NCBI GenBank assembly: GCA_020349685.1
Contig: CP070698.1
Location: 365,885-378,000 of the forward strand
Length of the DNA stretch: 12,116 bases
Direction of reading: 5' to 3'
DNA from: a bacterium
Lineage (GTDB): Bacteria > BMS3Abin14
Shown: positions 415 to 12,116 of the stretch, in pieces
How the letters are laid out: every line of letters starts with the position of its first letter
Position numbering within the stretch: position 1 is the first letter of the stretch
Program-made: the position numbers and the translations under genes
Notes under the pieces: generated by a model
The model's database searches: none
What the model saw: the letters and a program-made list of their open reading frames with translations, nothing else
Told to the model about the DNA's origin: nothing

Positions 415-1158
415 CTATCCACCAGAAACTTCCCTTCCTTTCCCTATCATTCCCAGCGCGGTGTCCACGATGATGGCAAACAGACCGACCAGTGCGGCTC
501 CCTGGATAATGAAAGCAGGGTTTTCCCCGATGAGTCCGGCAATGATCGGTTTGCCAAGCCCACCGGCGCCTATGGTTGCGCCCAGTGTGGCAGTCCCGAT
601 ATTGATGACGGTAGAAATCCGCACACCTGCAAGGATGACCGGCAAGGCCAGCGGGATCTCGACGGACCCCAGAACCTGAACAGGGGTCATTCCCATACCC
701 CTTGCCGCTTCCAGGACATCCGAGTCCACCGAATCGATGCCTGTTATGGTGTTGCGGACCACGGGCAGGAGGCCATAAAGGAAAAGGGCGATGATCGTCG
801 GCTTGAAACCGAACCCCACAACCGGTACGGCGAGGGCAAGGACCGCCACGGGCGGAAAGGTCTGCCCCATGGAGGCCAGGGCATTCACCGCTGGCAGAAA
901 GTCACGGCCCCAGCGGCGCGTCACGGCGATCCCGGTAACCAGACCGAGGATCGTGGCCAGTCCGCTTGACACCAGGACCAGGAGGCCGTGTTCCGCGACG
1001 AGTTGGGTGAAGGGTGCCAGGTCGTAGATGACCTGGTCGAGGGAAGGGAAGAAAAACATCATGGCCACGGACCAGAGCGAGGTGGAAAGTGTGAGGATTA
1101 TAAATACGGCGATGAGTGCCGTTACGATCCAGATCTGTCTATTTATTCCATTGGCCAT
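415..1158 (-). CDS. yehW: Osmoprotectant (glycine betaine/choline-type) ABC transporter permease, YehW/OsmW-like
   Basis: 247 aa hydrophobic protein with QTFPPVAVLALAVP, LYGLLPVVRNT and the EAA loop EAARGMGMT; last gene of the operon. Confidence 0.88.
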   Translation of the reverse strand: MANGINRQIWIVTALIAVFIILTLSTSLWSVAMMFFFPSLDQVIYDLAPFTQLVAEHGLLVLVSSGLATILGLVTGIAVTRRWGRDFLPAVNALASMGQTFPPVAVLALAVPVVGFGFKPTIIALFLYGLLPVVRNTITGIDSVDSDVLEAARGMGMTPVQVLGSVEIPLALPVILAGVRISTVINIGTATLGATIGAGGLGKPIIAGLIGENPAFIIQGAALVGLFAIIVDTALGMIGKGREVSGG

Positions 1159-1167
1159 GAGGTTTTT

Positions 1168-1191
1168 CAGTGGAAAGTGGACAGTGGACAG
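1168..1191. repeat. Heptamer repeat (CAGTGGA) x~3.4
   Basis: cagtgga aagtgga cagtgga cag. Confidence 0.75.
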
Positions 1192-1220
1192 CCCAAAGAG
1201 GAGGCCATATCCGGTCTCTT

Positions 1221-1255
1221 CTGAATCCTGAATTCCGAATCCTGAATCCTGATTT
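1221..1255. repeat. Heptamer repeat (CTGAATC)x5
   Basis: ctgaatc ctgaatt ccgaatc ctgaatc ctgattt, abutting the yehX stop codon. Confidence 0.88.
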
Positions 1256-2338
1256 TCATGCCTCCAATATGTCCTCCATCCTGATCTCTCCTAAAAGGGC
1301 CCCCTTCCGGTCCACCACCGGCGCGCTCCGGATCCCCTGCTGAACCATGCGTGAAAGGGCCTCCTTGAGGGTTGATTCGGTCGTAACCGCTGCCGTCCTG
1401 TGGTCAAGGCACGACATGGCGAGGCCGGCCGTTGGTTCAGCGCCTTCCAGGTCGTTTTTATCCAGCCATCCAAGCACGCGGCCGTTCCTGTCCACTACCC
1501 ACAGATAGGGATGTTCCAAAAGGAATCGCGCTGCTGATTGGAGAGGCTCTGAATCCGCGATACTCGGAGCCTTTTTCATGTAGTCGCCCGCCCCCAGCCT
1601 TGACAGCCTTTTCAGGGCCCTGTCGGTGCCGATAAACTCTGTGACGAACCGGCCCGCGGGGTTGGTCATGATGTTCTCCGGCGTGTCGTGCTGAACCAGC
1701 TTTCCTTCCCTGAGGATGATGATCCTGGTCGCGAGACGGATCGCTTCATCGATATCGTGGGTTACAAAAACGATGGTTTTCCTCAGTTCCTTCTGGATCC
1801 GGGCGAATTCGGTCTGGAGCGCTTCCCGCGTGATGGGATCGATAGCGCCGAAGGGTTCGTCCATAAGAAGGATGGAGGGGTCGGCGGCAAGGGCCCGGGC
1901 CACGCCGACCCTCTGAGCTTCGCCGCCCGAAAGTTGACGGGGGTACTTGGCGCTGTAAATGCCCGGGTCCAGGTTCAGCATTTCAAGGAGGTGGCCCGTG
2001 CGGTCGCGGATCCTCGTCTGGTGCCAACCGAGGAGCCGTGGAACGACACCGACGTTCTGGGCGACCGTCATGTGAGGGAAGAGCCCGACGCTCTGGATGG
2101 CGTAGCCTATCTGACGCCGCAGCTCCTCCGCACGGTAGGTGGTGATGTCCTTTCCGCCGATAGTTATGACTCCACCGGATACAGGAATAAGCCGGTTTAT
2201 CATCCGGAGGGTGGTCGATTTTCCGCAGCCGGACGGACCGATGATCACGCAGAACTCGCCATCCTCCACATCGAAGGACAGTCCGTCCACAGCGGTTCTT
2301 CCGGCGAACACCTTTGTTACCTGCTGAAGGCTTATCAT
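1256..2338 (-). CDS. yehX: Osmoprotectant ABC transporter ATP-binding subunit with C-terminal CBS pair, YehX/OpuCA-like
   Basis: Walker A GPSGCGKST, signature LSGGEAQRV, Walker B ILLMDEPFGAID, H-loop VTHD; CBS-like C-terminus (APVVDRKGALLGEI). Start overlaps the yehY stop (ATGA). Confidence 0.92.
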   Translation of the reverse strand: MISLQQVTKVFAGRTAVDGLSFDVEDGEFCVIIGPSGCGKSTTLRMINRLIPVSGGVITIGGKDITTYRAEELRRQIGYAIQSVGLFPHMTVAQNVGVVPRLLGWHQTRIRDRTGHLLEMLNLDPGIYSAKYPRQLSGGEAQRVGVARALAADPSILLMDEPFGAIDPITREALQTEFARIQKELRKTIVFVTHDIDEAIRLATRIIILREGKLVQHDTPENIMTNPAGRFVTEFIGTDRALKRLSRLGAGDYMKKAPSIADSEPLQSAARFLLEHPYLWVVDRNGRVLGWLDKNDLEGAEPTAGLAMSCLDHRTAAVTTESTLKEALSRMVQQGIRSAPVVDRKGALLGEIRMEDILEA

Positions 2339-3504
2339 CGGAGCCCTTTCGGCCGCATCATGAAGATGATCCCACCCATGAAGGAATCAACAAACACGGC
2401 CATCAAGATGGTCGGCATCGCGCCAAGCATGATCAGGTCGTTGGCAGCCTGGCCCAGCCCCTGAAAGATGAACACTCCCATCCCTCCAGCGCCGATAAGG
2501 GCTGCAACAGCGGTCAGACCGATAGCCTGGACCAGCGATACCCTGATTCCGTTCAGGATAACCGCTGATGCGATTGGGATCTCGACTCTGAAAAGGAGCT
2601 GGGACGTTGTCATACCCATTCCCTTGCCGGCTTCGATGGCAGCCGGGTCCACCGTTGAAAAACCGGTGTACGTGTTCCTGACAACCGGAAGGAGGGAATA
2701 GGCGGTCAGGGCGATGAGCGCCGGTGCCGTACCGATGCCGCTGACACCCATTTCGGTGAGAAAAGGGAATTTCAGGGTGGCGGCGGCAAGGATCGGTATG
2801 AGGATGCCGAAAAGCGCCAGGCTCGGCGTGGTCTGAAGTGTGTTGAGTGTGAAGAATGTCGGGTTGTAGAAACGTTTTTTCCGGTGTGCCAGGAGGCCGA
2901 GCGGGATCCCCAGCGCGAGGGAAAGCCCAACTGAAGATACCACCAGTGCCGCGTGGGTGATCAATTCACTGAAAAAGCGCTCCCTGCGGTTGGCGAATTC
3001 ACGCATGATAGAGAGCATGTCAAAACGGCCCGAGATCAGCAGGAATGCCGCAGCGGCGGCGGTGGCCAGGACCAGAAGAACAACGGGGCTCTTGCCTTTG
3101 CCACAACTTTGCCATGTATCGGTGAGGATGATGATCAGTGTGAAGGCGCCTATCCAGAAGGCCGGACCGAGCGACACCCTTGCAATCGTTCCGTATTCCT
3201 CCGTAATTATGGCCGCGTGTTTTCCCGCCGTGATCATCAGGAGGATGAGGAGGATCGATGAGAGCAAACCGGCAAGAAGGATCCGACGCCGTCTGTTGAA
3301 CCTCAAGGAGCATAGGATGACGAGAGCGATCCAGAAAAGGACCACCACGATCCACAATTCTCCACGGGTCCTCACGAGATGCACGGCGTCGCCGATGGCG
3401 ATCCGGTTGGGCCTGAAGGTCACGAAGCCCGTTGACAGGATGGCCACCAGCCCCAGGACGGCGGCGCTGAATGGAACTTTTTCGATGGAGAAGAGAGGGC
3501 GCAT
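2335..3504 (-). CDS. yehY: Osmoprotectant ABC transporter permease, long YehY-like form
   Basis: 389 aa; N-terminal RPNRI motif and extra TM region, QTTPSLALFGILI, YSLLPVVRNT, EAGKGMGMT, AALIGAGGMG. Confidence 0.88.
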   Translation of the reverse strand: MRPLFSIEKVPFSAAVLGLVAILSTGFVTFRPNRIAIGDAVHLVRTRGELWIVVVLFWIALVILCSLRFNRRRRILLAGLLSSILLILLMITAGKHAAIITEEYGTIARVSLGPAFWIGAFTLIIILTDTWQSCGKGKSPVVLLVLATAAAAAFLLISGRFDMLSIMREFANRRERFFSELITHAALVVSSVGLSLALGIPLGLLAHRKKRFYNPTFFTLNTLQTTPSLALFGILIPILAAATLKFPFLTEMGVSGIGTAPALIALTAYSLLPVVRNTYTGFSTVDPAAIEAGKGMGMTTSQLLFRVEIPIASAVILNGIRVSLVQAIGLTAVAALIGAGGMGVFIFQGLGQAANDLIMLGAMPTILMAVFVDSFMGGIIFMMRPKGLR

Positions 3505-3510
3505 AAAAAG

Positions 3511-3617
3511 AGGGGAAAGGTTAAAGGGGAAAGGTTAAAGGGGAAAGAGGAGGCGTGTGTGCCGTCAAGTGATCCAGCGCGTTGACTTTCCCCTTTCTCC
3601 CTTCACCTTTCGCCTTT
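3511..3617. repeat. Inverted pair of heptamer arrays (AGGGGAA/AGGTTAA alternating x5 ... CTTTCNC x4)
   Basis: aggggaa aggttaa aggggaa aggttaa aggggaa (3511-3545) and the complementary ctttccc ctttctc ccttcac ctttcgc cttt (3586-3617). Confidence 0.85.
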
Positions 3618-4536
3618 ATTTCAGAAACCCCTTCTCCTTCAGATACCCTCGGGCCACCTCTCTGGCATCGATACCTTCAACCTGTATCCTGGCGTTGAGT
3701 GTCTGGAGCGTCACCAGGTCCAGGGACTCGAAGACCGGCTTGAGGAGGGGCTCGATCTTCGGGTATTTATCCAGGATCGTCTTCCGGACGATGGGTGCCG
3801 GTTCGTACACGGGTTGAACGGCTTTGGTATCCTCAAGGACGATCAGCCCGAGAGCCGCCAGCTGCCCATCGGTTCCGTAGGCCATGGCGAAATTCACTCC
3901 GTTCACGCCCTGTGCCGCGGCCTTTTCCGTCTGGGCCGTGTTGCCTCCCGAAAGGGTGAGGAGCTGGTCCTTGCGCAGGGTGAAACCGTAGGCCTCCTGG
4001 AAGGCGGGCAGGGCGGCCGCGCTGTTGACGAATTCCTCACTGCCGGCAAGCTTGACCTTTCCGCCATCGTTAACGTATCTGGCGAACTCTTCCAGGGTGT
4101 ACACCTTGTTCTCATCCGCCACATCCTTGCGTGCCGCGATGGCCCAGGTGTTGTTGGCTGGAGCGGGCGTAAGCCAGACAACGCCGTTCGCCTCCATATC
4201 CAGTTCTTTGACCTTCTGATAGCCTTTGGACGCGTCTTTCCAGAGGGGATCGTCCGCGAGGCCGAAAAAGAAGGCTCCGTTTCCCGTATACTCCGGGTAG
4301 ATGTCGATCTGTCCCGCCGCGATGGCCTTTCGTACCATGGGCGTGGGCCCGAATTCGGTCCTGTCCTCGGTGGAGATACCGTTCATCTCCAGCATGAGGA
4401 TGATCATGTTGCCCAGCAGCGCCCCCTCGGTATCGATCTTGGAGGCCACAACGACCTTGTCCGCAGCAAGGCCGGGCGAGATCGCCACAGCCAGGGTGAC
4501 GAACGAGGCAATAAGTGCATTAAATATGAAACGCAT
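3616..4536 (-). CDS. osmF: Periplasmic osmoprotectant-binding protein, OsmF/YehZ-like
   Basis: Start refined to ATG 4536 (SD AAGGGGG upstream); signal peptide MRFIFNALIASFVTLAVAISPGLA; motifs VASKIDTEGALLG, DIYPEYTGNG, APANNTWAIA, AMAYGTDG, QPVYEPAPIVR. Confidence 0.9.
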   Translation of the reverse strand: MRFIFNALIASFVTLAVAISPGLAADKVVVASKIDTEGALLGNMIILMLEMNGISTEDRTEFGPTPMVRKAIAAGQIDIYPEYTGNGAFFFGLADDPLWKDASKGYQKVKELDMEANGVVWLTPAPANNTWAIAARKDVADENKVYTLEEFARYVNDGGKVKLAGSEEFVNSAAALPAFQEAYGFTLRKDQLLTLSGGNTAQTEKAAAQGVNGVNFAMAYGTDGQLAALGLIVLEDTKAVQPVYEPAPIVRKTILDKYPKIEPLLKPVFESLDLVTLQTLNARIQVEGIDAREVARGYLKEKGFLK

Positions 4537-4588
4537 TTTCACCCCCTTGTTCTGGTCCCGCATTCAAAAAGCGCTTTGCGAGACGCAT

Positions 4589-4715
4589 GTATCGGTGTGT
4601 CGGTGTATGGGAGTATCGGGGAAAGAGCAGTAACCCGTTCAGGAATACCGGTTGAATTTGTAGACGACACGGAGGTTCTGCGTCGATACCCCGTTACTCC
4701 GATACCCCGATGCGA
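4589..4715. repeat. Inverted pair of octamer arrays (GTATCGGN x4 ... CGATACCC x~4)
   Basis: gtatcggt gtgtcggt gtatggga gtatcggg (4589-4620) and cgataccc cgttactc cgataccc cgatgcga (4684-4715). Confidence 0.8.
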
Positions 4716-4719
4716 CACT

Positions 4720-5310
4720 TTACATTCCTTCCAGTATGGACCTTTTAAGTTCTTTCAGGCCCCCGTCCCCGAGTTTTTCACCGAACCAGATGGCCAGAAG
4801 AGCACCGGCGAAATCAGATCCTTCAATCGTCGCTTTTGGCTGGCCATTGAAGATAATGGTTGTTCCTTTCCCGGGTTCGTACTGAAAAACATGCCTATCG
4901 CCCTCAACGGCTGCCTCTGAAAACAGGGAGACAAAACGGTCCATGCGATTTTTAAGATCGGGCGTGGCCGCAGGCGTATTGGCCTCAAACCCTTCCCGCC
5001 AGGCTTCCTGCAATTTTTCACCATCGACCTTTTTGTAAAGGTATGCCATCTCCATGGCCTTCGCCTGGTCCGACGCGATGATATTCCCGGGATCTTTTGA
5101 AGGGGTCTCCATGTAAAGTCCCGCCACGTAGACCTTCACCTTGAGAAAGGTCTTGGTCCTGATACCCATCCCCGCCAGAGCGGCGGTGCGCCCACCGATC
5201 TGAATGGTGTTGTCCATGGTGACGCCTGCGAGTTCTCCTGCAGGCACGCCCTGGGGGATCAAGGCCGCGGTGAACAGAAACATCAGTGTTAAAGCCAAGA
5301 TCTTTTTCAT
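4720..5310 (-). CDS. Secreted chalcone-isomerase-fold protein (Chalcone_3-like)
   Basis: Strong SD AAGGAGG; signal peptide; family-type motifs LAGMGIRTKTFLKVKVYVAGLY, AWREGFEAN, FAGALLAIWFGEK. Confidence 0.82.
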   Translation of the reverse strand: MKKILALTLMFLFTAALIPQGVPAGELAGVTMDNTIQIGGRTAALAGMGIRTKTFLKVKVYVAGLYMETPSKDPGNIIASDQAKAMEMAYLYKKVDGEKLQEAWREGFEANTPAATPDLKNRMDRFVSLFSEAAVEGDRHVFQYEPGKGTTIIFNGQPKATIEGSDFAGALLAIWFGEKLGDGGLKELKRSILEGM

Positions 5311-5420
5311 GTTCTCCTCCTTGTAAATTCAATAATTCGTGACTCGGTCCAGGATCCGTGAATCGTATTTCTTGATCTGTCAATTTGATGCCCTTAGAGG
5401 GTGCTGTTGTACTCTTTTCG

Positions 5421-5441
5421 AATCACGAATCACTAGTCACG
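5421..5441. repeat. Heptamer repeat (AATCACG)x3, with loosely complementary CGTGAAT-like units near 5337-5377
   Basis: aatcacg aatcact agtcacg just downstream of the mazG stop. Confidence 0.65.
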
Positions 5442-5443
5442 GG

Positions 5444-6217
5444 TTATCTCTCGCCCTTTTTGGCTTTTTGCCAATACCTTTCCATTTCGTCCAGCTCCAT
5501 CTCCTCGAGTGACTTTGCATCTCCCGAAGCCAGTTCTTCCATCGCCCGGAAACGACCAGCGAACTTGTTCATGGAAGCTTCGAGCGCATCTGCTGGATGG
5601 ACGTCCAGGAAACGGGACAGATTGACGGTCATGAAAAGCAGGTCCCCAATTTCCTCCATGATCTTCCGGCGGTCTCCTCCAGCAACGGCTTCGCGGATTT
5701 CCTCCATCTCCTCGACAAGCTTTTCAAAGAGCTGGGATGTCTCCTCCCAATCAAAGCCCAGGCTGACGGCTTTTTCCTGCATGCGCAGCGCGCGGTGGAG
5801 GATGGGGGTCCCCGGATGCCTCTTTGTCCTCTTTTTCCCCTCGGTTTCCTCCTTTATGCGCTCCCAGTTCTTGAGGGCTGCCGCCTCATCGGCCGCCTTT
5901 TCATCCCCGAACACGTGGGGATGACGGCGCAGCAGCTTATCGTTGATCCCGCGAACCACGTCGTCGAAATTGAAAGTGCCTTCTTCTGCCGCGATCTGGC
6001 TGTGAAAGACGATCTGAAGCAGGAGGTCGCCCAACTCCTCTCTGATCTCACCGTTCTCGCCGCTGTCAACAGCCTCAACAAGTTCATATGCCTCTTCAAC
6101 GACATAAGGTCTCAATGTTTCGTGCGTTTGCTCCCTGTCCCAGGGACAGCCTTTGGGTCCCCTGAGCGTCGCCATGATCTCGAGAAGTTCATCAATGGGT
6201 TTTTTCATCTTAGCCAC
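5444..6217 (-). CDS. mazG: Nucleoside triphosphate pyrophosphohydrolase MazG (tandem domain)
   Basis: LRGPKGCPWDREQT, EEAYELVEA, EELGDLLLQIVFHSQIA, KLLRRHPHVFG, GFDW, EEIGDLLF. Start is GTG 6217 or ATG 6208. Confidence 0.95.
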   Translation of the reverse strand: MAKMKKPIDELLEIMATLRGPKGCPWDREQTHETLRPYVVEEAYELVEAVDSGENGEIREELGDLLLQIVFHSQIAAEEGTFNFDDVVRGINDKLLRRHPHVFGDEKAADEAAALKNWERIKEETEGKKRTKRHPGTPILHRALRMQEKAVSLGFDWEETSQLFEKLVEEMEEIREAVAGGDRRKIMEEIGDLLFMTVNLSRFLDVHPADALEASMNKFAGRFRAMEELASGDAKSLEEMELDEMERYWQKAKKGER

Positions 6218-6396: not shown

Positions 6397-6426
6397 TTGT
6401 ATTCCCTGTTATCCTTGGGGTATAAT
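6397..6426 (+). promoter_or_regulatory. Putative sigma70 promoter of the selenoprotein gene
   Basis: TTGTAT (6397-6402), 18-nt spacer, perfect TATAAT (6421-6426), 54 nt before ATG 6481. Confidence 0.6.
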
Positions 6427-6480
6427 CACTGGACAGGAATAACTCAACTTTTCAACGCTTTTCGGAAGGGGGTACCGACG

Positions 6481-7677
6481 ATGAAAAGATATGTCCTTTG
6501 GTCGCTTCTGGTGCTGCTCAGCCTTTTATTGGCAAGCAGCGCGTTGGCGGCTGAGACCGTCAAATTCGAACCCGTGCGCGCACCAAGCAAGGGACCAGAT
6601 AACGCGCCCGTGACCATCATCGAGATCGCGGATTTCATGTGACCCTTCTGCAAGGAGGTCGGTCCGACCTTCAAACAGCTGTTCGAGGAATACAAGGGCA
6701 AGGTGCGGTTCGTTCTGGTTCCCTACATGAGACGGTATTCCCACGATTCGGAAAACGCCGCCCTCGCAGCCTGGGCGGCATGGGATCAGGGCAAGTTCTG
6801 GGAGATGCACGATCTGCTCTTTGAAAAGGCTCCGGAGCTCGACAGGCCCATCCTGGACGACCTGGCGCGACAGCTGGGTCTTGATATGAACAAGTTCAGG
6901 AAGGCCATGGAAGAAAAGTCAAACCTTCCCGAGCTGAAGGAAAATCTGGACAGGGTTCACCAGCTGGATATCTGGAGCACCCCCACGGCGATCATCAACG
7001 GTCGAGTGGTCAAAGGCGCCCAGCCTATTGAGAACTATCGGAAGGTGATCGATGAGGCCCTCGGTAAGAGCGGCCTGACACCATGGGTGCCGGCCTACCT
7101 GAAGGCCCTCTTCCATGTGCTTGGCCCCGCCCCGGCCCATGCACAGAGCAGGGAGTTTGGACGAGGGAAGGTACCCCTCTACATAAAGGTTCCTGATGCC
7201 AAACCGACAAACGAACCGAAAGTGGGAGAAGAGGCCCCTGATTTCACCCTCCCCAGTGTGGGGGATGCCTCCATCAGCCTGAAAGAGTACAGAGGGAAAA
7301 AGAACGTGCTGCTCAGCTTCCTGCCGGCCGCGTTCACACCTGTCTGAACGGGGCAACTGGCTGCGTACGAGGAGCTCAAGGACCTCTTCGCGCAGCACGA
7401 CACCCAGGTTCTGGGTGTGCTGACCGATAACCTTCCCAGCCTCAAGGCATGGACACAGGGTATCAATGTTTCCTTCCCTGTCCTGAGCGATTACTGGCCC
7501 CACGGACACACGGCCCTCAAATATGACGTTCTCCGGTCAGAGGGGATCGCTGAAAGAGCCATTTTCATCATCGACAAGAAGGGGATCATCAGGTACATCG
7601 ACGTCCACGACATCAACGAAGACCCTGGCATGAACGCCATTATCAGGACTTTGGAGGAGATAGAAGGGAAGAAATAG
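6481..7677 (+). CDS. Exported DsbA-like thioredoxin-fold / AhpE-like peroxiredoxin fusion with two selenocysteines (U54, U289); 398 aa
   Basis: One frame from ATG 6481 (SD GGAAGGGGG) to TAG 7677 with only two internal TGA: 6640-6642 in IIEIADFM-U-PFC and 7345-7347 in SFLPAAFTPV-U-TGQ. Signal peptide ...ASSALA/AE; DsbA cis-Pro loop STPTAIING; AhpE-like VLSDYWPHG and ERAIFIIDKKG. Confidence 0.9.
6654..6672 (+). promoter_or_regulatory. Bacterial SECIS-like hairpin for UGA 6640
   Basis: GGAGGUCG-GUC-CGACCUUC, an 8-bp stem starting 11 nt after the UGA, with GU at the apex (GGUC as in the E. coli fdhF SECIS). Confidence 0.75.
7360..7396 (+). promoter_or_regulatory. Candidate SECIS hairpin for UGA 7345
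   Basis: GCUGCG-UA-CGAGGAG-[CUCAAGGAC]-CUCUUCG-CGCAGC: 13 bp with a 2-nt bulge, starting 12 nt after the UGA. The apical loop is less canonical. Confidence 0.55.
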
Positions 7678-7681
7678 TGGC

Positions 7682-7758
7682 AAGTGGAAAGGATAAAGGG
7701 GAAAGGTCAAACGGCAGGCTGTGTTTTACTTTCCCCTTTCCACTTTTACCTTTTCCCT
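7682..7758. repeat. Inverted pair of heptamer arrays (AAGNNNA x4 ... TTNNNCT x5)
   Basis: aagtgga aaggata aagggga aaggtca (7682-7709) and ttttact ttcccct ttccact tttacct tttccct (7724-7758); same family as 3511-3617. Confidence 0.8.
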
Positions 7759-7772
7759 TTGTTTTCCCCCCC

Positions 7773-7915: not shown

Positions 7916-8332
7916 ATGACAGAGGACCAAAAGAAGGACAAGGATTTCAAGGTCGATGACCGCCGCACTTCCTCAGGCGCGGAAGGTAAAGAGAGCAAGC
8001 CACCGGAACCCGAAGGTCAATCCGGCGCCGATAAAGGAGAGCCTCCCGAGCCTCCGAAAACTGGCGATCCGGGCGAGGCCATCAAGGTCGATTTTTCGAC
8101 TTTCATATTTTCCCTTTTCAGTTCGGCGCTGATACAGCTCGGCGACATGGCTGATCCCATTACGGGTGCCATGGACCCCAACCTTACCTCTGCCAAGCAG
8201 ACCATCGACATCATCGATATCCTCAGGTTAAAGACCCAAGGTAACCTGACAGAGGAAGAGGACAACCTTCTGGAGAACGCCTCGGCAGAACTGAAGTGGA
8301 AATACCTTGATGCCCTTAAGAAGAAAAACTAG
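7916..8332 (+). CDS. DUF1844-family protein
   Basis: SD AAGGGAG; charged N-terminus FKVDDRR, then VDFSTFIFSLFSSALIQLG..DPITG...NLTSAKQTIDIIDILRLKTQGNLTEEE. Confidence 0.82.
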   Translation: MTEDQKKDKDFKVDDRRTSSGAEGKESKPPEPEGQSGADKGEPPEPPKTGDPGEAIKVDFSTFIFSLFSSALIQLGDMADPITGAMDPNLTSAKQTIDIIDILRLKTQGNLTEEEDNLLENASAELKWKYLDALKKKN

Positions 8333-8345
8333 GATCCGGAGCCTG

Positions 8346-10307
8346 ATGAGAAAATTCAAGATCCTCGTCCTCCTCCTGGTTGCGTGGGCGATCTTTTCAG
8401 TCAATGCGGTCCTGGCCATCGAGGTCAGTGAGGTAACCGTCGATTTCCCCCTTTCCGAAGTGCTGGATATCAAACCTTCCGAACCGGACGGCACGGCGCA
8501 GGTCAGTGCAGGGGGTGCCTCTGCGAAGGTGTGGCGCGCCCCCTGGGAGGATGACTGGTACGCCTACCGGCAGAACGTCCTTCGCGGAAACTTCAGCGAG
8601 GCGGAAAAACGGCTCGAAAAGGTTCTGGCGCACCGGAAAAAGAGCGGGATCCCCAACCTGTTCAGCCCCGCAGCCGCCCTCCTGGTAGAGGCGTCGACGG
8701 CGAGGAAGCAGGGGCGATACGATGACGCCCTCAAGATCATCGCCTACGCAAAGGAGTTCGCACCCGACGATCCCGGTCCGCATTTTCAGAGGGCCCGGAC
8801 CATCTGGAGACAGAACCAGCTCAGAGCCCTGTCTTCACTGGATGCTCTTTTAGAGGGATGGGTCACCTTTTTCAAGGACTTCCGTTCCTTTTTCCCATGG
8901 GGCATGGGGGTCGTCCTCTGGTTTCTTGTAGCGGTAACGATCTCTTCCCTGCTGACGATCCTGCTGTTCACGCCCAGGGTCCTCCCCAGGATAGCCCACG
9001 ATCTTTCCCATGTGGTAAAGGTTCCCCAGTGGCTGTGGCTGGCTGCCATTCCCATCCTATTGGCTGTCATTGCCCTCATGGGAGTGCCCTTTATCATCTG
9101 GATCCTGCTCGTGGCCCTGACGATGATGCTGCACCTGACGAACCGGGAAAGAATGGCCGTGGGTCTGGCACTTTTCCTCCTTCTGGCTCTGCCGCTCCTC
9201 GTCCATGTCCTGGCACTTAACGAAGCGTACTACTCGAACTCCAGGTCTTACATGATCTAGATGGCGGAAAGGGGCGGAGAAGGGGCCAGAACCCTCGAGG
9301 AACTTCATGCGCTTCGCGTGAAGGATCCCGAGAACAGTCATGTCCTGTCTACACTCGGTGTGGTCCTCAAGAGGTCGGGCCGTTTGAGGGAGGCGGAATC
9401 GTACCTGTCCAGGGCAATGGATCTGGCTCCGGATTCACCGTCCATTATCAACAACCTCGGCAACGTCCTTTTCCAGACCGGCCGCGTCACGGCAGCCGTC
9501 GATCATTACAGACAGGCTCTCAGGTACGAGGACGACCCACGCATCCATTACAACCTCAGTCAGGCACTGAGAGAGAACCTTCAGCTCGAGGAGGGAGAGA
9601 AGGAATTCCGGGTCGCCCAGGAGAAAGCGCCTGAATTGGCAAGCTCGCTCATGGCACAGCAGCAGGAGGGGGGGCAGCGTATAACGGTGGAAATTTATGG
9701 AGAGTCCAGCCGCTACCTGCTCGATTCCCTCTCCCTGGACCGGGCCGGCATGCAGTGGAGAGATGCGCTCTGGTCGGGCATCGTTCCCATGGTCCCCTTC
9801 AGAAGCTCCTGGTTCCTGTTCCCCGTGTCGGCTGTGATCCTTTTCATGGGGCTGCCTTTGAGCGGAAGGTTCAGCATTTCGAGGAGGTGCCGGCGCTGCA
9901 ACAAGATGCACTGCCACAAGTGCAGCCAATCCAGTTCCGATGTCCTGTGTGCCCAGTGCCGGCAGATCTTCATCGTTCGAAGCGGCGTTGATCCAGCCAG
10001 CCGCGTTAAAAAGATGATGCAGATCATGAGGTTCACCAAGACCAGGGCCCTTGTTTCCAGGGTGGCGACAGTCCTGCTTCCGGGCATGGGGCACATCTAT
10101 CTCGGAGTGGGCTGGCAATCCCTGGTTCTCATCACCCTGTCGGTGATGTTCTGGTCAAAATGGGTCCTCTGGTACGGGGTTTTCAGGAACACGACCTTAC
10201 TGGATATTCAGGCAGGGCTGTTCTCCAAGATCCTGTTCGGAATCCTTCTGGGTGCTTTTTACCTGTTTGCGCTGAAAAATGTGAGCAGCCAGCTGGAGGA
10301 GAAATGA
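8346..10307 (+). CDS. Signal peptide-TPR-multi-TM-TPR-Cys-rich Zn-finger membrane protein, 653 codons, interrupted by one in-frame TAG at 9258-9260 (readthrough/Pyl, nonsense mutation or error)
   Basis: ATG 8346 after GGAG, with signal peptide MRKFKILVLLLVAWAIFSVNAVLA. ORFs 8307-9260 and 9261-10307 share one frame joined by ATC TAG ATG. TPR motifs (AMDLAPDSPSIINNLGNVLF, HYNLSQAL); CRRC-x4-CHKC-x8-CAQC; LLPGMGHIYLG. Confidence 0.7.
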
Positions 10308-10311
10308 TCCC

Positions 10312-11523
10312 ATGGCGCTAAAGGGCACACTCAGGGATTTTGGCCTTTCAGATATATTCCAGCTGATCTCCCACCAGAGAAAGACAGGGGTACTTCGTCT
10401 CGAGGACAAGGGAAAGAGCGTGTCCGTTGCCTTCGATGAGGGCAAGGTGGTAGGGGCTGAAAGCGCCTCCGCCAGAACCCAGGAGAAGGAGCGGGTGGGG
10501 GATATCCTCGTCAAATCAGGTCTCGTGGACACAGCACGGCTTGATGAATGTCTTCAGGAACAGAAAAGGACAGCCAAGAAACTCGGTGTGGTTCTGACCG
10601 AAAAGAACTACCTCACGGAGGAGCTTTTCCGGGCGGCCCTTGCTTTCCAGATCAAGGAAACCCTCTACAGGATCTTTCAGTGGAGCAGCGGGACCTACAA
10701 GTTCGATGCCACAAAGGTGGAGTACGACAAACATTTTATCTCCCCCTTTCCGGCCGAGTACATCCTCATGGAAGCGGCGAGGATCATCGATGAATGGCCC
10801 GGTGTGCAGGCTAAAATACCCTCGATGGAGATCGTTTTTGACAAGATCTCGGGAGCGGAGGGGAAGATCGTCAGAAGTTCCGACCTTGGCAAGGAAACCG
10901 GTGGGGATGAGGATGTAAGCTTCGACACGATCGGTGAGGAAAAGCCCAAGTCGATAGAGGGCGACAGGACGGTGCTGTCCGCTGCCCAGGAGAAGGTTTT
11001 CGACCTGGTCAACGGAAAGTTCTCCGTTTCCGATATCGCTTACAGGTCACTCCTGGGGGATTTCGAGGCCTGCAAAATCCTCACGGACCTTTCGGGATTC
11101 GGCCTGATAAGACCGGTCAAGGTGCCCGTGTCAACGCCCAAGACCGAGGAAACGGCAAAGGAGACCAGGAGGCGCAAAGGGGTCGTCACCTTGCTTACCG
11201 GCCTGTTCTTTGCGGGTATACTGATCTTTATCCTTTTCAGTGCCATCGCGCGCTCGGGCGGGAAGCTCAACCTCCTCGCCCAGGTGACTTCCGAAAAGGC
11301 CATTACAATAAGGCAGACCATCGTCAACGCCCAGAAACAGCGCCTCATGCTCGCACTGGAAACATACCGGCTGGAGAAAGGTTCCTATCCTCTTTCCCTG
11401 GATGATCTCGTCCAGACAGGTTTTGTTATTGACTCTGACATCTCCTACCCCTTTGAGGAACCTTACAGGCTGGAATGGAGCGACAAGGGCCCCATTATTG
11501 TGCCTCCCGGGGATCAGCCGTGA
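10312..11523 (+). CDS. DUF4388 (PatA_N-like) protein with MshEN-like motif, one TM helix and GspG-like C-terminus
   Basis: MALKGTLRDFGLSDIFQLISHQRKTGVL; RVGDILVKSGLV...LQEQ; FQWSSGTYKF; EAARIIDEW; TM VVTLLTGLFFAGILIFILFSAIA; LALETYRLEKGSYPLSLDDLV. Confidence 0.8.
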   Translation: MALKGTLRDFGLSDIFQLISHQRKTGVLRLEDKGKSVSVAFDEGKVVGAESASARTQEKERVGDILVKSGLVDTARLDECLQEQKRTAKKLGVVLTEKNYLTEELFRAALAFQIKETLYRIFQWSSGTYKFDATKVEYDKHFISPFPAEYILMEAARIIDEWPGVQAKIPSMEIVFDKISGAEGKIVRSSDLGKETGGDEDVSFDTIGEEKPKSIEGDRTVLSAAQEKVFDLVNGKFSVSDIAYRSLLGDFEACKILTDLSGFGLIRPVKVPVSTPKTEETAKETRRRKGVVTLLTGLFFAGILIFILFSAIARSGGKLNLLAQVTSEKAITIRQTIVNAQKQRLMLALETYRLEKGSYPLSLDDLVQTGFVIDSDISYPFEEPYRLEWSDKGPIIVPPGDQP

Positions 11524-12116
11524 AAAAAGCTCTCAAATTAGAAGATGAAACGGTTGCAAGGGTGCTTTCGGGTGACAGGGATCGGAACCTGAAGATGATC
11601 CAGCAGCTGACCGGTGTGACGGTGGGTGTCCGGGGTGAAAATATCTTTTTCGACGGGCCGGAGGAAAAGGTCGAAGACGTCCAGCGCCTGATCGAGGACA
11701 TCATCGACAACCTTGGCAAAGGGAGGGCGATAACCAACGATGAGATAGAGAACCTGTTCCGGCAGGCGGGCAACGGGGAGAAAACGGGGTACACGGAGCT
11801 CGTTTCTGAAGCGGTGGTTCTGACCCCCCGAAAATCGGTGGTTCCCAAAAGCCGGAACCAGAAACTCTACCTTGAGAGGATCGGCACCGACGATATCGTT
11901 TTCGGTATCGGACCCGCTGGAACGGGCAAGACCTATCTCGCCATGGCCGCGGCCGTGAGAGCTCTCGTTTCCAAGGAAGTCAGCCGGATCATCCTGACCC
12001 GGCCGGCCGTGGAGGCGGGGGAGAAGCTCGGGTTCCTGCCCGGTGACATGTACGAAAAGGTCAATCCCTACCTGAGGCCCCTTTATGACGCTCTCTTTGA
12101 CATGATCAGCGCGGAG
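11520..12116 (+). CDS. phoH: PhoH-family ATPase (PhoH/YbeZ-like), 3' end beyond the window
   Basis: Absent from the ORF track because there is no stop. GTG 11520 overlaps the upstream TGA. Translation gives FGIGPAGTGKTYLA, LTRPAVEAGEKLGFLPGD, NPYLRPLYDAL. Confidence 0.93.
   Translation, partial: MKKALKLEDETVARVLSGDRDRNLKMIQQLTGVTVGVRGENIFFDGPEEKVEDVQRLIEDIIDNLGKGRAITNDEIENLFRQAGNGEKTGYTELVSEAVVLTPRKSVVPKSRNQKLYLERIGTDDIVFGIGPAGTGKTYLAMAAAVRALVSKEVSRIILTRPAVEAGEKLGFLPGDMYEKVNPYLRPLYDALFDMISAE

Follow-up and report, generated by a model that had tools for sequence, protein, structure and literature searches.

A conserved gene with two in-frame TGA codons in a small candidate phylum of sediment bacteria is predicted to encode a DsbA-like/AhpE-like peroxiredoxin double selenoprotein

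Selenoproteins with a DsbA-like domain, selenoproteins with a peroxiredoxin (Prx) domain, and fusion selenoproteins with several selenocysteines (Sec, U) are all listed in the review tables of PMC13188914. The Sec DsbA-like proteins ("DsbA-like protein form 1," PF01323) carry a UxxC motif, the bacterial Sec-Prx family (PF00578; PrxU, NF040737) has its Sec in a T-x-x-U motif, and the double (fusion) selenoproteins described by Haft and Tolstoy (2025), for example arsenite methyltransferase/AhpD and methyltransferase/UXPK-star, are given there as bacterial products of the joining of two Sec-bearing domains, with a total of two or three Sec residues. The coupling of a Prx to a thioredoxin-fold protein is represented by the ScsB-TlpA-PprX envelope peroxide-reduction pathway of Caulobacter crescentus, in which an exported Prx is recycled by an exported thioredoxin-fold protein (PMC3322552), and by PRDX4, which hands the oxidizing equivalents of peroxide to protein-disulfide isomerase (PDI) in oxidative folding in the endoplasmic reticulum (PMC4138195). 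Here, we describe a gene at positions 6481 to 7677 of the forward strand of a 12,116-nucleotide stretch of bacterial DNA (the window; GenBank assembly GCA_020349685.1, contig CP070698.1, positions 365,885 to 378,000) that appears to join a DsbA-like domain and a Prx domain of the AhpE type, each with a Sec in its active site, in one exported protein.

When TGA was translated as U, positions 6481-7677 (+) gave a single frame of 398 residues closed by TAG, in which only two codons differed from translation table 11: U54 (TGA at 6640-6642) and U289 (TGA at 7345-7347). U54 lies in the context ...IADFM-U-PFCKEVGPTFK... and is the first position of U-P-F-C, and U289 lies in ...LPAAFTPV-U-TGQLAAYEEL... 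and is the last position of P-A-A-F-T-P-V-U. Under table 11, the same frame is split into open reading frames (ORFs) at 6397/6481-6642, 6703-7347, and 7417-7677. An earlier note, made from the letters of this DNA, had described one frame broken only by two TGAs, in DFM-stop-PFC at 6640 and in PAAFTPV-stop at 7345, and had expected gene callers to fragment it, all of which our translation bears out. The features of the gene are as follows.

6464..6472, + strand: purine-rich stretch GGAAGGGGG resembling a ribosome-binding site, 8 nt 5' of the ATG (read from the sequence)
6481..7677, + strand: predicted coding sequence, 398 codons plus TAG, of the DsbA-like/AhpE-like Prx double selenoprotein (frame with two TGAs, homologues)
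6481..6552, + strand: putative N-terminal Sec-type signal peptide, with MKR, a hydrophobic core, and ALA-AE (sequence pattern)
6592..7056, + strand: DsbA-like thioredoxin-fold domain, residues 38-192, with U54-P-F-C57 (Pfam)
6640..6642, + strand: UGA 1, predicted Sec54, first position of UxxC, opposite the invariant Cys56 of the Cys/Cys homologues
6654..6672, + strand: hairpin 1, resembling a selenocysteine insertion sequence (SECIS), GGAGGUCG-GUC-CGACCUUC, starting 11 nt past UGA 1 (RNAalifold)
7057..7221, + strand: variable linker, residues 193-247, with a semi-hydrophobic stretch and A-x-A (...LGPAPAHA-QS...) (alignment)
7222..7674, + strand: AhpE-type 1-Cys(Sec) Prx domain, residues 248-398, with P282-A-A-F-T286-P-V-U289 and R359 (Pfam)
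7345..7347, + strand: UGA 2, predicted Sec289, peroxidatic position, opposite the invariant Cys285 of the Cys/Cys homologues
7358..7396, + strand: SECIS-like hairpin 2, a long stem-loop with its base 10-11 nt past UGA 2 (fold and hand-set register)
7679..7763, + strand: terminator-like hairpin with a U-rich tail, after the TAG (fold of -28.6 kcal/mol, z = -2.1)

We then asked how widely this gene and its two TGAs are kept. A six-frame search at E <= 1e-40 covered 16 species-level genomes of the family; the phylum search returned the same 16, which makes the lineage a very small candidate phylum, represented by metagenome-assembled genomes (MAGs) only. A full-length gene with exactly two in-frame TGAs was present in 11 of the 16 (G000, the window's own assembly, and G001, G002, G003, G004, G005, G007, G010, G011, G021, and G023), with 61 to 77% identity to the window protein. 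A twelfth copy (G009) is ended by a contig edge and has the second TGA, and G006, G008, G012, and G022 gave no fusion match at this threshold. In the alignment of the full-length copies, both Sec columns were TGA in 11/11, and the recurrence of the same two TGAs in the same columns of 11 species-level genomes excludes chance. U54-P-F-C57, P282, T286, position 289, and R359 were likewise invariant in 11/11 copies. In G012, the slot between mazG and the DUF1844 gene (L025:1501-1719) holds a fusion remnant of about 220 bp, comprising the last ~80 codons, with deletions and an in-frame TAA.

Homologues with Cys in place of Sec supplied the second line of evidence. An exhaustive HMMER search retrieved a fused homologue, P0240 (393 aa), that is 38% identical over residues 5-393 and has the active sites C-A-Y-C and T-P-V-C. 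When P0240 was itself used as the query, 23 of the 120 matches listed carried both PF01323 and PF00578 (369-419 aa); they come from MAGs of Thermodesulfobacteriota, Myxococcales, and Candidatus Lernaella, among others. All 23 have Cys in both Sec columns, so that the homologue check proposed in the earlier note gave TGA at both positions within the phylum and Cys at both outside it. The Sec/Sec and Cys/Cys profiles aligned end to end (hhalign probability of 100%, E = 2.7e-95, 362 columns, 39% identity), with U54 opposite C56 and U289 opposite C285. The Cys/Cys fusions share the domain order, the signal-peptide-like start, and the same three conserved redox residues with the gene described here and differ in having Cys at both sites, CxxC (often CxHC or CxYC), AAWTPxC, and a different linker. 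Their NCBI name is only "redoxin domain-containing protein," and no characterization of them was found in the literature searched. One further database protein resembles a Cys/Sec intermediate: P0262 carries C-P-F-C, and its sequence stops directly after ...AAFTPV. The Sec/Sec form is present in public databases as middle fragments that all end in ...FTPV (P0036, P0053, P0057, P0062, P0067, P0101, P0104, and P0157), under names such as "thioredoxin domain-containing protein" (e.g., P0057) or "hypothetical protein." A scan with the peptide words DFMCPFC and WDQGKFW brought up, outside the phylum, single DsbA-like genes for the most part; the first of these words is blind to the TGA form, and the scan is no census of the fusion.

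The genome was next examined for the machinery of Sec insertion. The assembly (2.03 Mb in 344 pieces joined by N runs, 81.9% complete) contains a tRNA-Sec with the anticodon tca, no other tRNA with this anticodon being found, and a selB gene scoring 362 bits against a cut-off of 242. Twelve further genomes of the family were searched for selD, and 10 of them had a match above the cut-off with an in-frame TGA of its own; selA was present in 12 of the 16 phylum genomes, and both genes were found in the two same-genus genomes and in G003, which is a single contig listed as 100% complete. As a separate observation, the selD matches above the cut-off (in the relatives G001-G012 and G018) contain one in-frame TGA in 11 of 12 cases, only G014 having none, which implies that the SelD of this lineage is a selenoprotein, too.

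Two other ways of reading the TGAs have to be set against decoding as Sec. The first is that they are real stops, leaving three small ORFs or a pseudogene, or else sequencing errors. In its favor, standard gene calling yields three ORFs, and public databases do contain exactly such fragments (e.g., P0057). However, both TGAs are kept in 11 species-level genomes with the protein conserved on either side of them, the homologues have Cys at both sites, the truly decayed copy of G012 looks quite different, and a first product of 53 residues would amount to a signal peptide plus half of one strand. Independent DNA speaks against errors as well. Near-identical DNA was found in 18 metagenome runs (sediment, estuary, and marine sediment) from nine studies, one of which runs may be the window's own source, and in two DNA runs, each of a different study, contigs that extend over both TGAs show them unchanged. 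TGC or TGT, which in raw reads would have refuted the proposal of the earlier note, did not appear in the assemblies of these two other studies. These contigs showed six differences (7356 A>G, synonymous; 6899/6900, in R140; 7130, A217V; 7144, Q222E; and 7683, past the stop), their residue effects being our own codon reading, and the residues changed (four changes) are all variable in the 11-copy alignment. We regard real stops or errors as very improbable. The second reading, in which TGA encodes Trp (code 4) or Gly (code 25) as in a reassigned code, would account for the one public annotation, P0002 (JGI, 399 aa, 77% identical, named "peroxiredoxin/protein-disulfide isomerase"), that has W at both TGAs. 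It is countered by the use of TGA as the commonest stop in the genome, where it closes 294 of 599 long stop-to-stop frames; in the window, 4 of 11 ORFs end in it. TGA as a common ordinary stop excludes a reassigned genetic code. Three of the orthologues, moreover, end in a genuine TGA stop at the aligned C terminus, a third TGA from which it follows that the codon has both meanings in the lineage. The sole tca-anticodon tRNA found is tRNA-Sec, selB is present, and a Trp at the CxxC or the peroxidatic position would kill both active sites. The W at both sites in P0002 is a code-4 artifact, and reading of TGA as a standard amino acid hardly deserves consideration.

The hairpins that follow the two UGAs gave a more mixed result, and it is here and in the remaining machinery that the points against Sec decoding are to be found. 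For hairpin 1, RNAalifold (11 sequences) returned 8 pairs. Six of these do not vary, two have changed on both sides of the stem without loss of pairing, and in two sequences one pair is a C·A mismatch. Synonymous-codon identity at invariant residues was 0.83 in this stretch, which placed it third among 136 windows, and 0.48 elsewhere in the gene; on the other hand, this conservation largely overlaps a conserved peptide, and the single-sequence fold is no better than that of shuffled sequences (z = -0.63). Hairpin 2 folds well as a single sequence (z = -2.2). RNAalifold on its own did not recover it, and in a first hand-set register it showed no covariation beyond shuffles (130/500). In a second hand-set register, 71.4% of cells were paired, compared with 67.1% in shuffles, and the covariation score was 0.208, compared with 0.142; each value was reached by 0/500 shuffles, and every slid control scored lower for covariation, with the reservation that the aligned sequences are kin and the shuffle counts therefore overstate the support for the hairpins. 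Given the RNAalifold miss, support for hairpin 2 as a SECIS-like element is moderate. A stem-loop of the kind called for in a bacterial SECIS (bSECIS) nevertheless follows each UGA. Also on the negative side, selA and selD were not found in the window's own 81.9%-complete, 344-piece assembly. We read this as assembly incompleteness; of the machinery for which the earlier note had proposed a search (selA, selB, selC, and selD), tRNA-Sec and selB were thus located, and the two genes not found are present in both same-genus genomes. Two metatranscriptome libraries each contributed one contig matching the gene at >=99% (i.e., at least 99%), one at 6561-6802, spanning the first TGA, and the other at 7334-7538, beginning 11 nt before the second; DNA can occur in RNA libraries, so these contigs are no proof of transcription, and the parts of the gene without such cover carry no meaning.

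Taken together, the TGAs in 11/11 copies, the Cys in 23/23 homologues, the tRNA-Sec, and selB make us nearly certain that this is one gene, predicted to encode an exported mature protein of ~41 kDa with both UGAs decoded as Sec by the SelB/SECIS route, and the single 398-aa polypeptide with Sec in both domains, as proposed in the earlier note, stands at that strength. The N terminus has a basic-hydrophobic-AxA pattern common to 11/11 full-length copies in the alignment, which points to export of the protein. The purine-rich stretch at 6464..6472 may serve as the ribosome-binding site. A promoter and terminator scan listed no terminator 3' of the gene, though the hairpin at 7679..7763 does fold.

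Both domains were assigned by Pfam, with the models that the earlier note had named (DSBA/Thioredoxin_4 and AhpC-TSA/Redoxin). Residues 38-192 matched Thioredoxin_4 (PF13462; 1.3e-26, 94.2 bits, cut-off of 23.2), residues 45-190 matched DSBA (PF01323; 1.3e-15, 58.1 bits, cut-off of 25.6), and the matches of residues 248-373 to AhpC-TSA (PF00578; 2e-35) and of residues 247-387 to Redoxin (2.6e-26) were both above the curated cut-offs. The closest solved relatives of the DsbA-like half are Bacillus subtilis BdbD (1e-17), actinobacterial DsbA, and ScsC-type proteins. W165-S-T-P-T169, which is invariant in the 11-copy alignment, is presumably the cis-Pro loop of this domain. The best solved relative of the Prx half is Mycobacterium tuberculosis AhpE (3.3e-27, residues 246-376). 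The top seven PDB matches are AhpE type (3e-27 to 3e-26), namely, six entries of M. tuberculosis AhpE (Rv2238c/MT2298) and 4xih, named "AhpC/TSA family protein," and the next match, which is not AhpE, is at 1e-18. In the alignment to AhpE, U289 stands opposite the Cys of FTGIC and R359 opposite the Arg of ANRG. AhpE (Rv2238c; PDB 1xvw, 1xxu, and 4x0x) thus shares with the Prx half the PxxxTxxC motif, the ...AERA/ANRG... Arg, and the lack of a resolving Cys, the Prx domain of the fusion having no further conserved Cys column; it differs in that the fusion has Sec for the peroxidatic Cys, is probably exported and not cytoplasmic, and has a DsbA-like domain attached. No NCBIfam model reached its cut-off for the fusion protein. 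The best match, over residues 38-192, was NF041057, the Rcas_1661 family thioredoxin-like (seleno)lipoproteins (91.7 bits, cut-off of 190), followed by several Prx models, among which NF040737 PrxU scored 52.3 bits with a cut-off of 270. The signal peptide of the fusion has no Cys, unlike the lipoprotein signal of the NF041057 family, so that in comparison with these Sec DsbA-like lipoproteins, with which it shares UxxC in a DsbA/Thioredoxin_4 fold, the fusion is without a lipobox Cys and is joined to a Prx. With the Sec-Prx family, it shares the Pfam family and the T-x-x-U placement of Sec; its place in the AhpE branch and its additional Sec-containing domain set it apart.

The arrangement of redox residues suggests how the two domains might work together. 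Apart from U54, C57, and U289, no Cys/Sec column is conserved in both the Sec/Sec and the Cys/Cys families. A 1-Cys Prx requires an outside thiol to resolve its oxidized form, which makes the fused UxxC domain the obvious resolving candidate, and from the three conserved columns we infer a selenium redox relay from the Prx to the DsbA-like domain. The maintenance of the fusion across lineages only 38 to 39% identical also counts for such a relay, and we consider transfer from Sec289 to Sec54/Cys57 probable. In the proposed mechanism, peroxide would oxidize Sec289 to a selenenic acid, and the exposed Sec54 of the same chain or of a dimer partner would attack it to form a transient interdomain Se-Se bond. 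Cys57 would resolve this bond, leaving a U54-C57 selenylsulfide and freeing Sec289, and the oxidized UxxC would then be reduced by something outside the protein. Our leading reading, to which we hold tentatively, is that the protein works as a peroxidase of the cell envelope that brings its own redoxin and is recycled by some envelope reductant. Several observations weigh against these proposals. The interdomain contact is putative; a contact prediction on the Cys/Cys alignment scored 0.00 with controls not run and speaks neither for nor against it. A DsbD/CcdA-type transporter (DsbD_TM, PF02683), which could be expected with a reductant-fed peroxidase, was found in only 5/16 genomes, and neither G000 (82% complete) nor the fusion-carrying single contig of G003 gave a PF02683 match. 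The ScsB-TlpA-PprX pathway, whose logic the proposed relay shares, differs from the fusion in using separate proteins, in that PprX is a PrxQ-type Cys enzyme and TlpA is not DsbA-like, and in its requirement for the DsbD-family protein ScsB (PMC3322552). As a whole, the favored explanation, one exported double selenoprotein acting as a DsbA-Prx relay, is in our judgment very likely.

As the main alternative, the same gene and relay could run in the oxidative direction, with the Prx using peroxide to re-oxidize the DsbA-like domain and the latter passing disulfides into exported proteins as a self-contained substitute for DsbB or VKOR; the thiols of client proteins would then be the reductant. 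The distribution of these proteins fits such a role: DsbB (PF02600) was not found in any of the 16 phylum genomes, VKOR is present in 4/16 (G006, G012, G022, and G010), three of which are among the four fusion-less genomes, and only 1/12 fusion carriers has it. The fusion-carrying genome G003, complete by its listing, gave no match for DsbB, VKOR, or DsbD_TM, and G012, a VKOR carrier, retains of the fusion only the TAA-interrupted remnant of ~220 bp. The solved relatives closest to the DsbA-like domain include true oxidases (BdbD and actinobacterial DsbA), and transfer from PRDX4 to PDI offers a precedent (PMC4138195) that shares the logic of a Prx feeding a thioredoxin-fold disulfide catalyst, its relevance here being hypothetical only, and that differs in being eukaryotic, in having a 2-Cys Prx and separate proteins, and in lacking selenium. 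Against this direction, the anti-correlation of fusion and VKOR comes from a small sample of closely related genomes, in which the gene may have been lost independently only two or three times, and is uncorrected for phylogeny, and the VKOR match of G006, a polytopic protein of 467 aa, has neither a DsbA domain nor a shown DsbA link. The near-identical DNA comes from sediment metagenomes, where a steady supply of peroxide seems doubtful, the closest domain relatives also include the reductase/isomerase ScsC, and the second Sec DsbA-like gene in nearly all these genomes could serve as a general oxidase. On balance, the oxidative direction appears possible but rather unlikely, and its most elaborate form, a self-contained peroxide-driven disulfide-forming enzyme with a transient interdomain diselenide, which by analogy would be a bacterial selenium-based counterpart of PRDX4-PDI, more unlikely still. 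A different fate of the protein would be cleavage of the one chain at the linker A-x-A after export, releasing a separate Sec DsbA-like protein and a Sec-Prx in a 1:1 ratio. In most of the 11 copies, the linker does contain a semi-hydrophobic stretch and, directly behind it, A-x-A or a comparable small-x-small motif, and the signal peptides of stand-alone exported homologues (216-248 aa) end at the equivalent place, before ...IYxV/P...KP.DS...VGDKAPDF. Yet the linker stretch is short and charged (K, H) and so would be a poor signal-peptidase substrate, the linker of the Cys/Cys fusions is proline rich and has no A-x-A motif, and the length varies, with insertions of 40-70 residues in the linkers of the database fragments P0062 and P0067. 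Cleavage is in our opinion quite improbable. The linker is the least conserved part of the 11-copy alignment, and the place of its A-x-A, where the signal peptides of the stand-alone homologues end, suggests that the stretch is probably a relic signal peptide of a once separate prx gene.

The gene stands alone between a divergent mazG and a row of DUF1844, TPR, TPR, DUF4388, and phoH genes. The neighbors in the window are listed below.

415-4563, - strand: OpuA-type glycine-betaine ABC transporter (two permeases, an ATPase with CBS domains, and a binding protein)
4720-5310, - strand: chalcone-isomerase-like protein
5444-6217, - strand: MazG
7916-12116, + strand: DUF1844 protein, two TPR proteins, DUF4388 protein, and PhoH

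There is no thiol-redox gene among these neighbors (415-6217 and 7916-12116). A DUF1844 and a TPR gene lie downstream of the fusion in 10/10 loci with enough flanking sequence, an adjacency that we read as inherited synteny and not as a functional link.

Three side observations concern single-domain relatives of the two halves and the DNA of the gene itself. The window's genome has a second DsbA-like gene (G000:C1:1238648-1239139, -) with an in-frame TGA at the CxxC (...FNDFQ-U-PYCARL...) and a long in-frame N-terminal extension, and similar single-TGA DsbA-like matches occur in nearly all 16 phylum genomes. It also has an exported Prx-like gene (G000:C1:1854923-1855276, +) with an in-frame TGA (...FYFAINTSA-U-RSTV...); it shares 34% identity with the Prx half of the fusion and has similar matches in G004, G011, and G023. 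Within the fusion gene, many metagenome contigs of other organisms match only the 35 nt of 6787-6821, which encode ...AAWDQGKFWEMHDL..., and then diverge. This stretch is a DsbA-family motif that is very conserved at the DNA level, and its conservation accounts for a spike of depth in the cover by metagenome contigs.

The author of the earlier note had known of no described example of this fusion. A double selenoprotein of the DsbA/Prx type was indeed not found in the literature searched, including passages of PMC13188914 and of the GOS and Olavius surveys (PMC2398784 and PMC1976440), with the limit that such a protein may be listed by Haft and Tolstoy (2025) or in supplementary survey data. 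The listed double selenoproteins have other domain pairs, and the table passages of PMC13188914 contain no DsbA/Prx entry. The claim of novelty does not extend further, since the Cys/Cys architecture is already in databases and fusions with two Sec residues are, by the same review passages, a known kind of protein. What the data point to is a real, conserved, and mis-annotated double selenoprotein that combines known families and has a plausible mechanism.

For this little-known sediment phylum, the result means that a conserved gene is fragmented or mistranslated in every public annotation examined. The predicted protein places one Sec in each of two different active sites, between which communication is very likely, and natural Cys/Cys and putative Cys/Sec relatives are at hand for comparison. 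The system is therefore suited to asking what selenium adds to a Prx-redoxin relay and whether an Se-Se intermediate is used. If the oxidative reading were true, the protein would form disulfides in the envelope without DsbB, VKOR, or quinones, and it would provide oxidizing power for the envelope of a phylum in which no DsbB was found and VKOR was found in only a few genomes.

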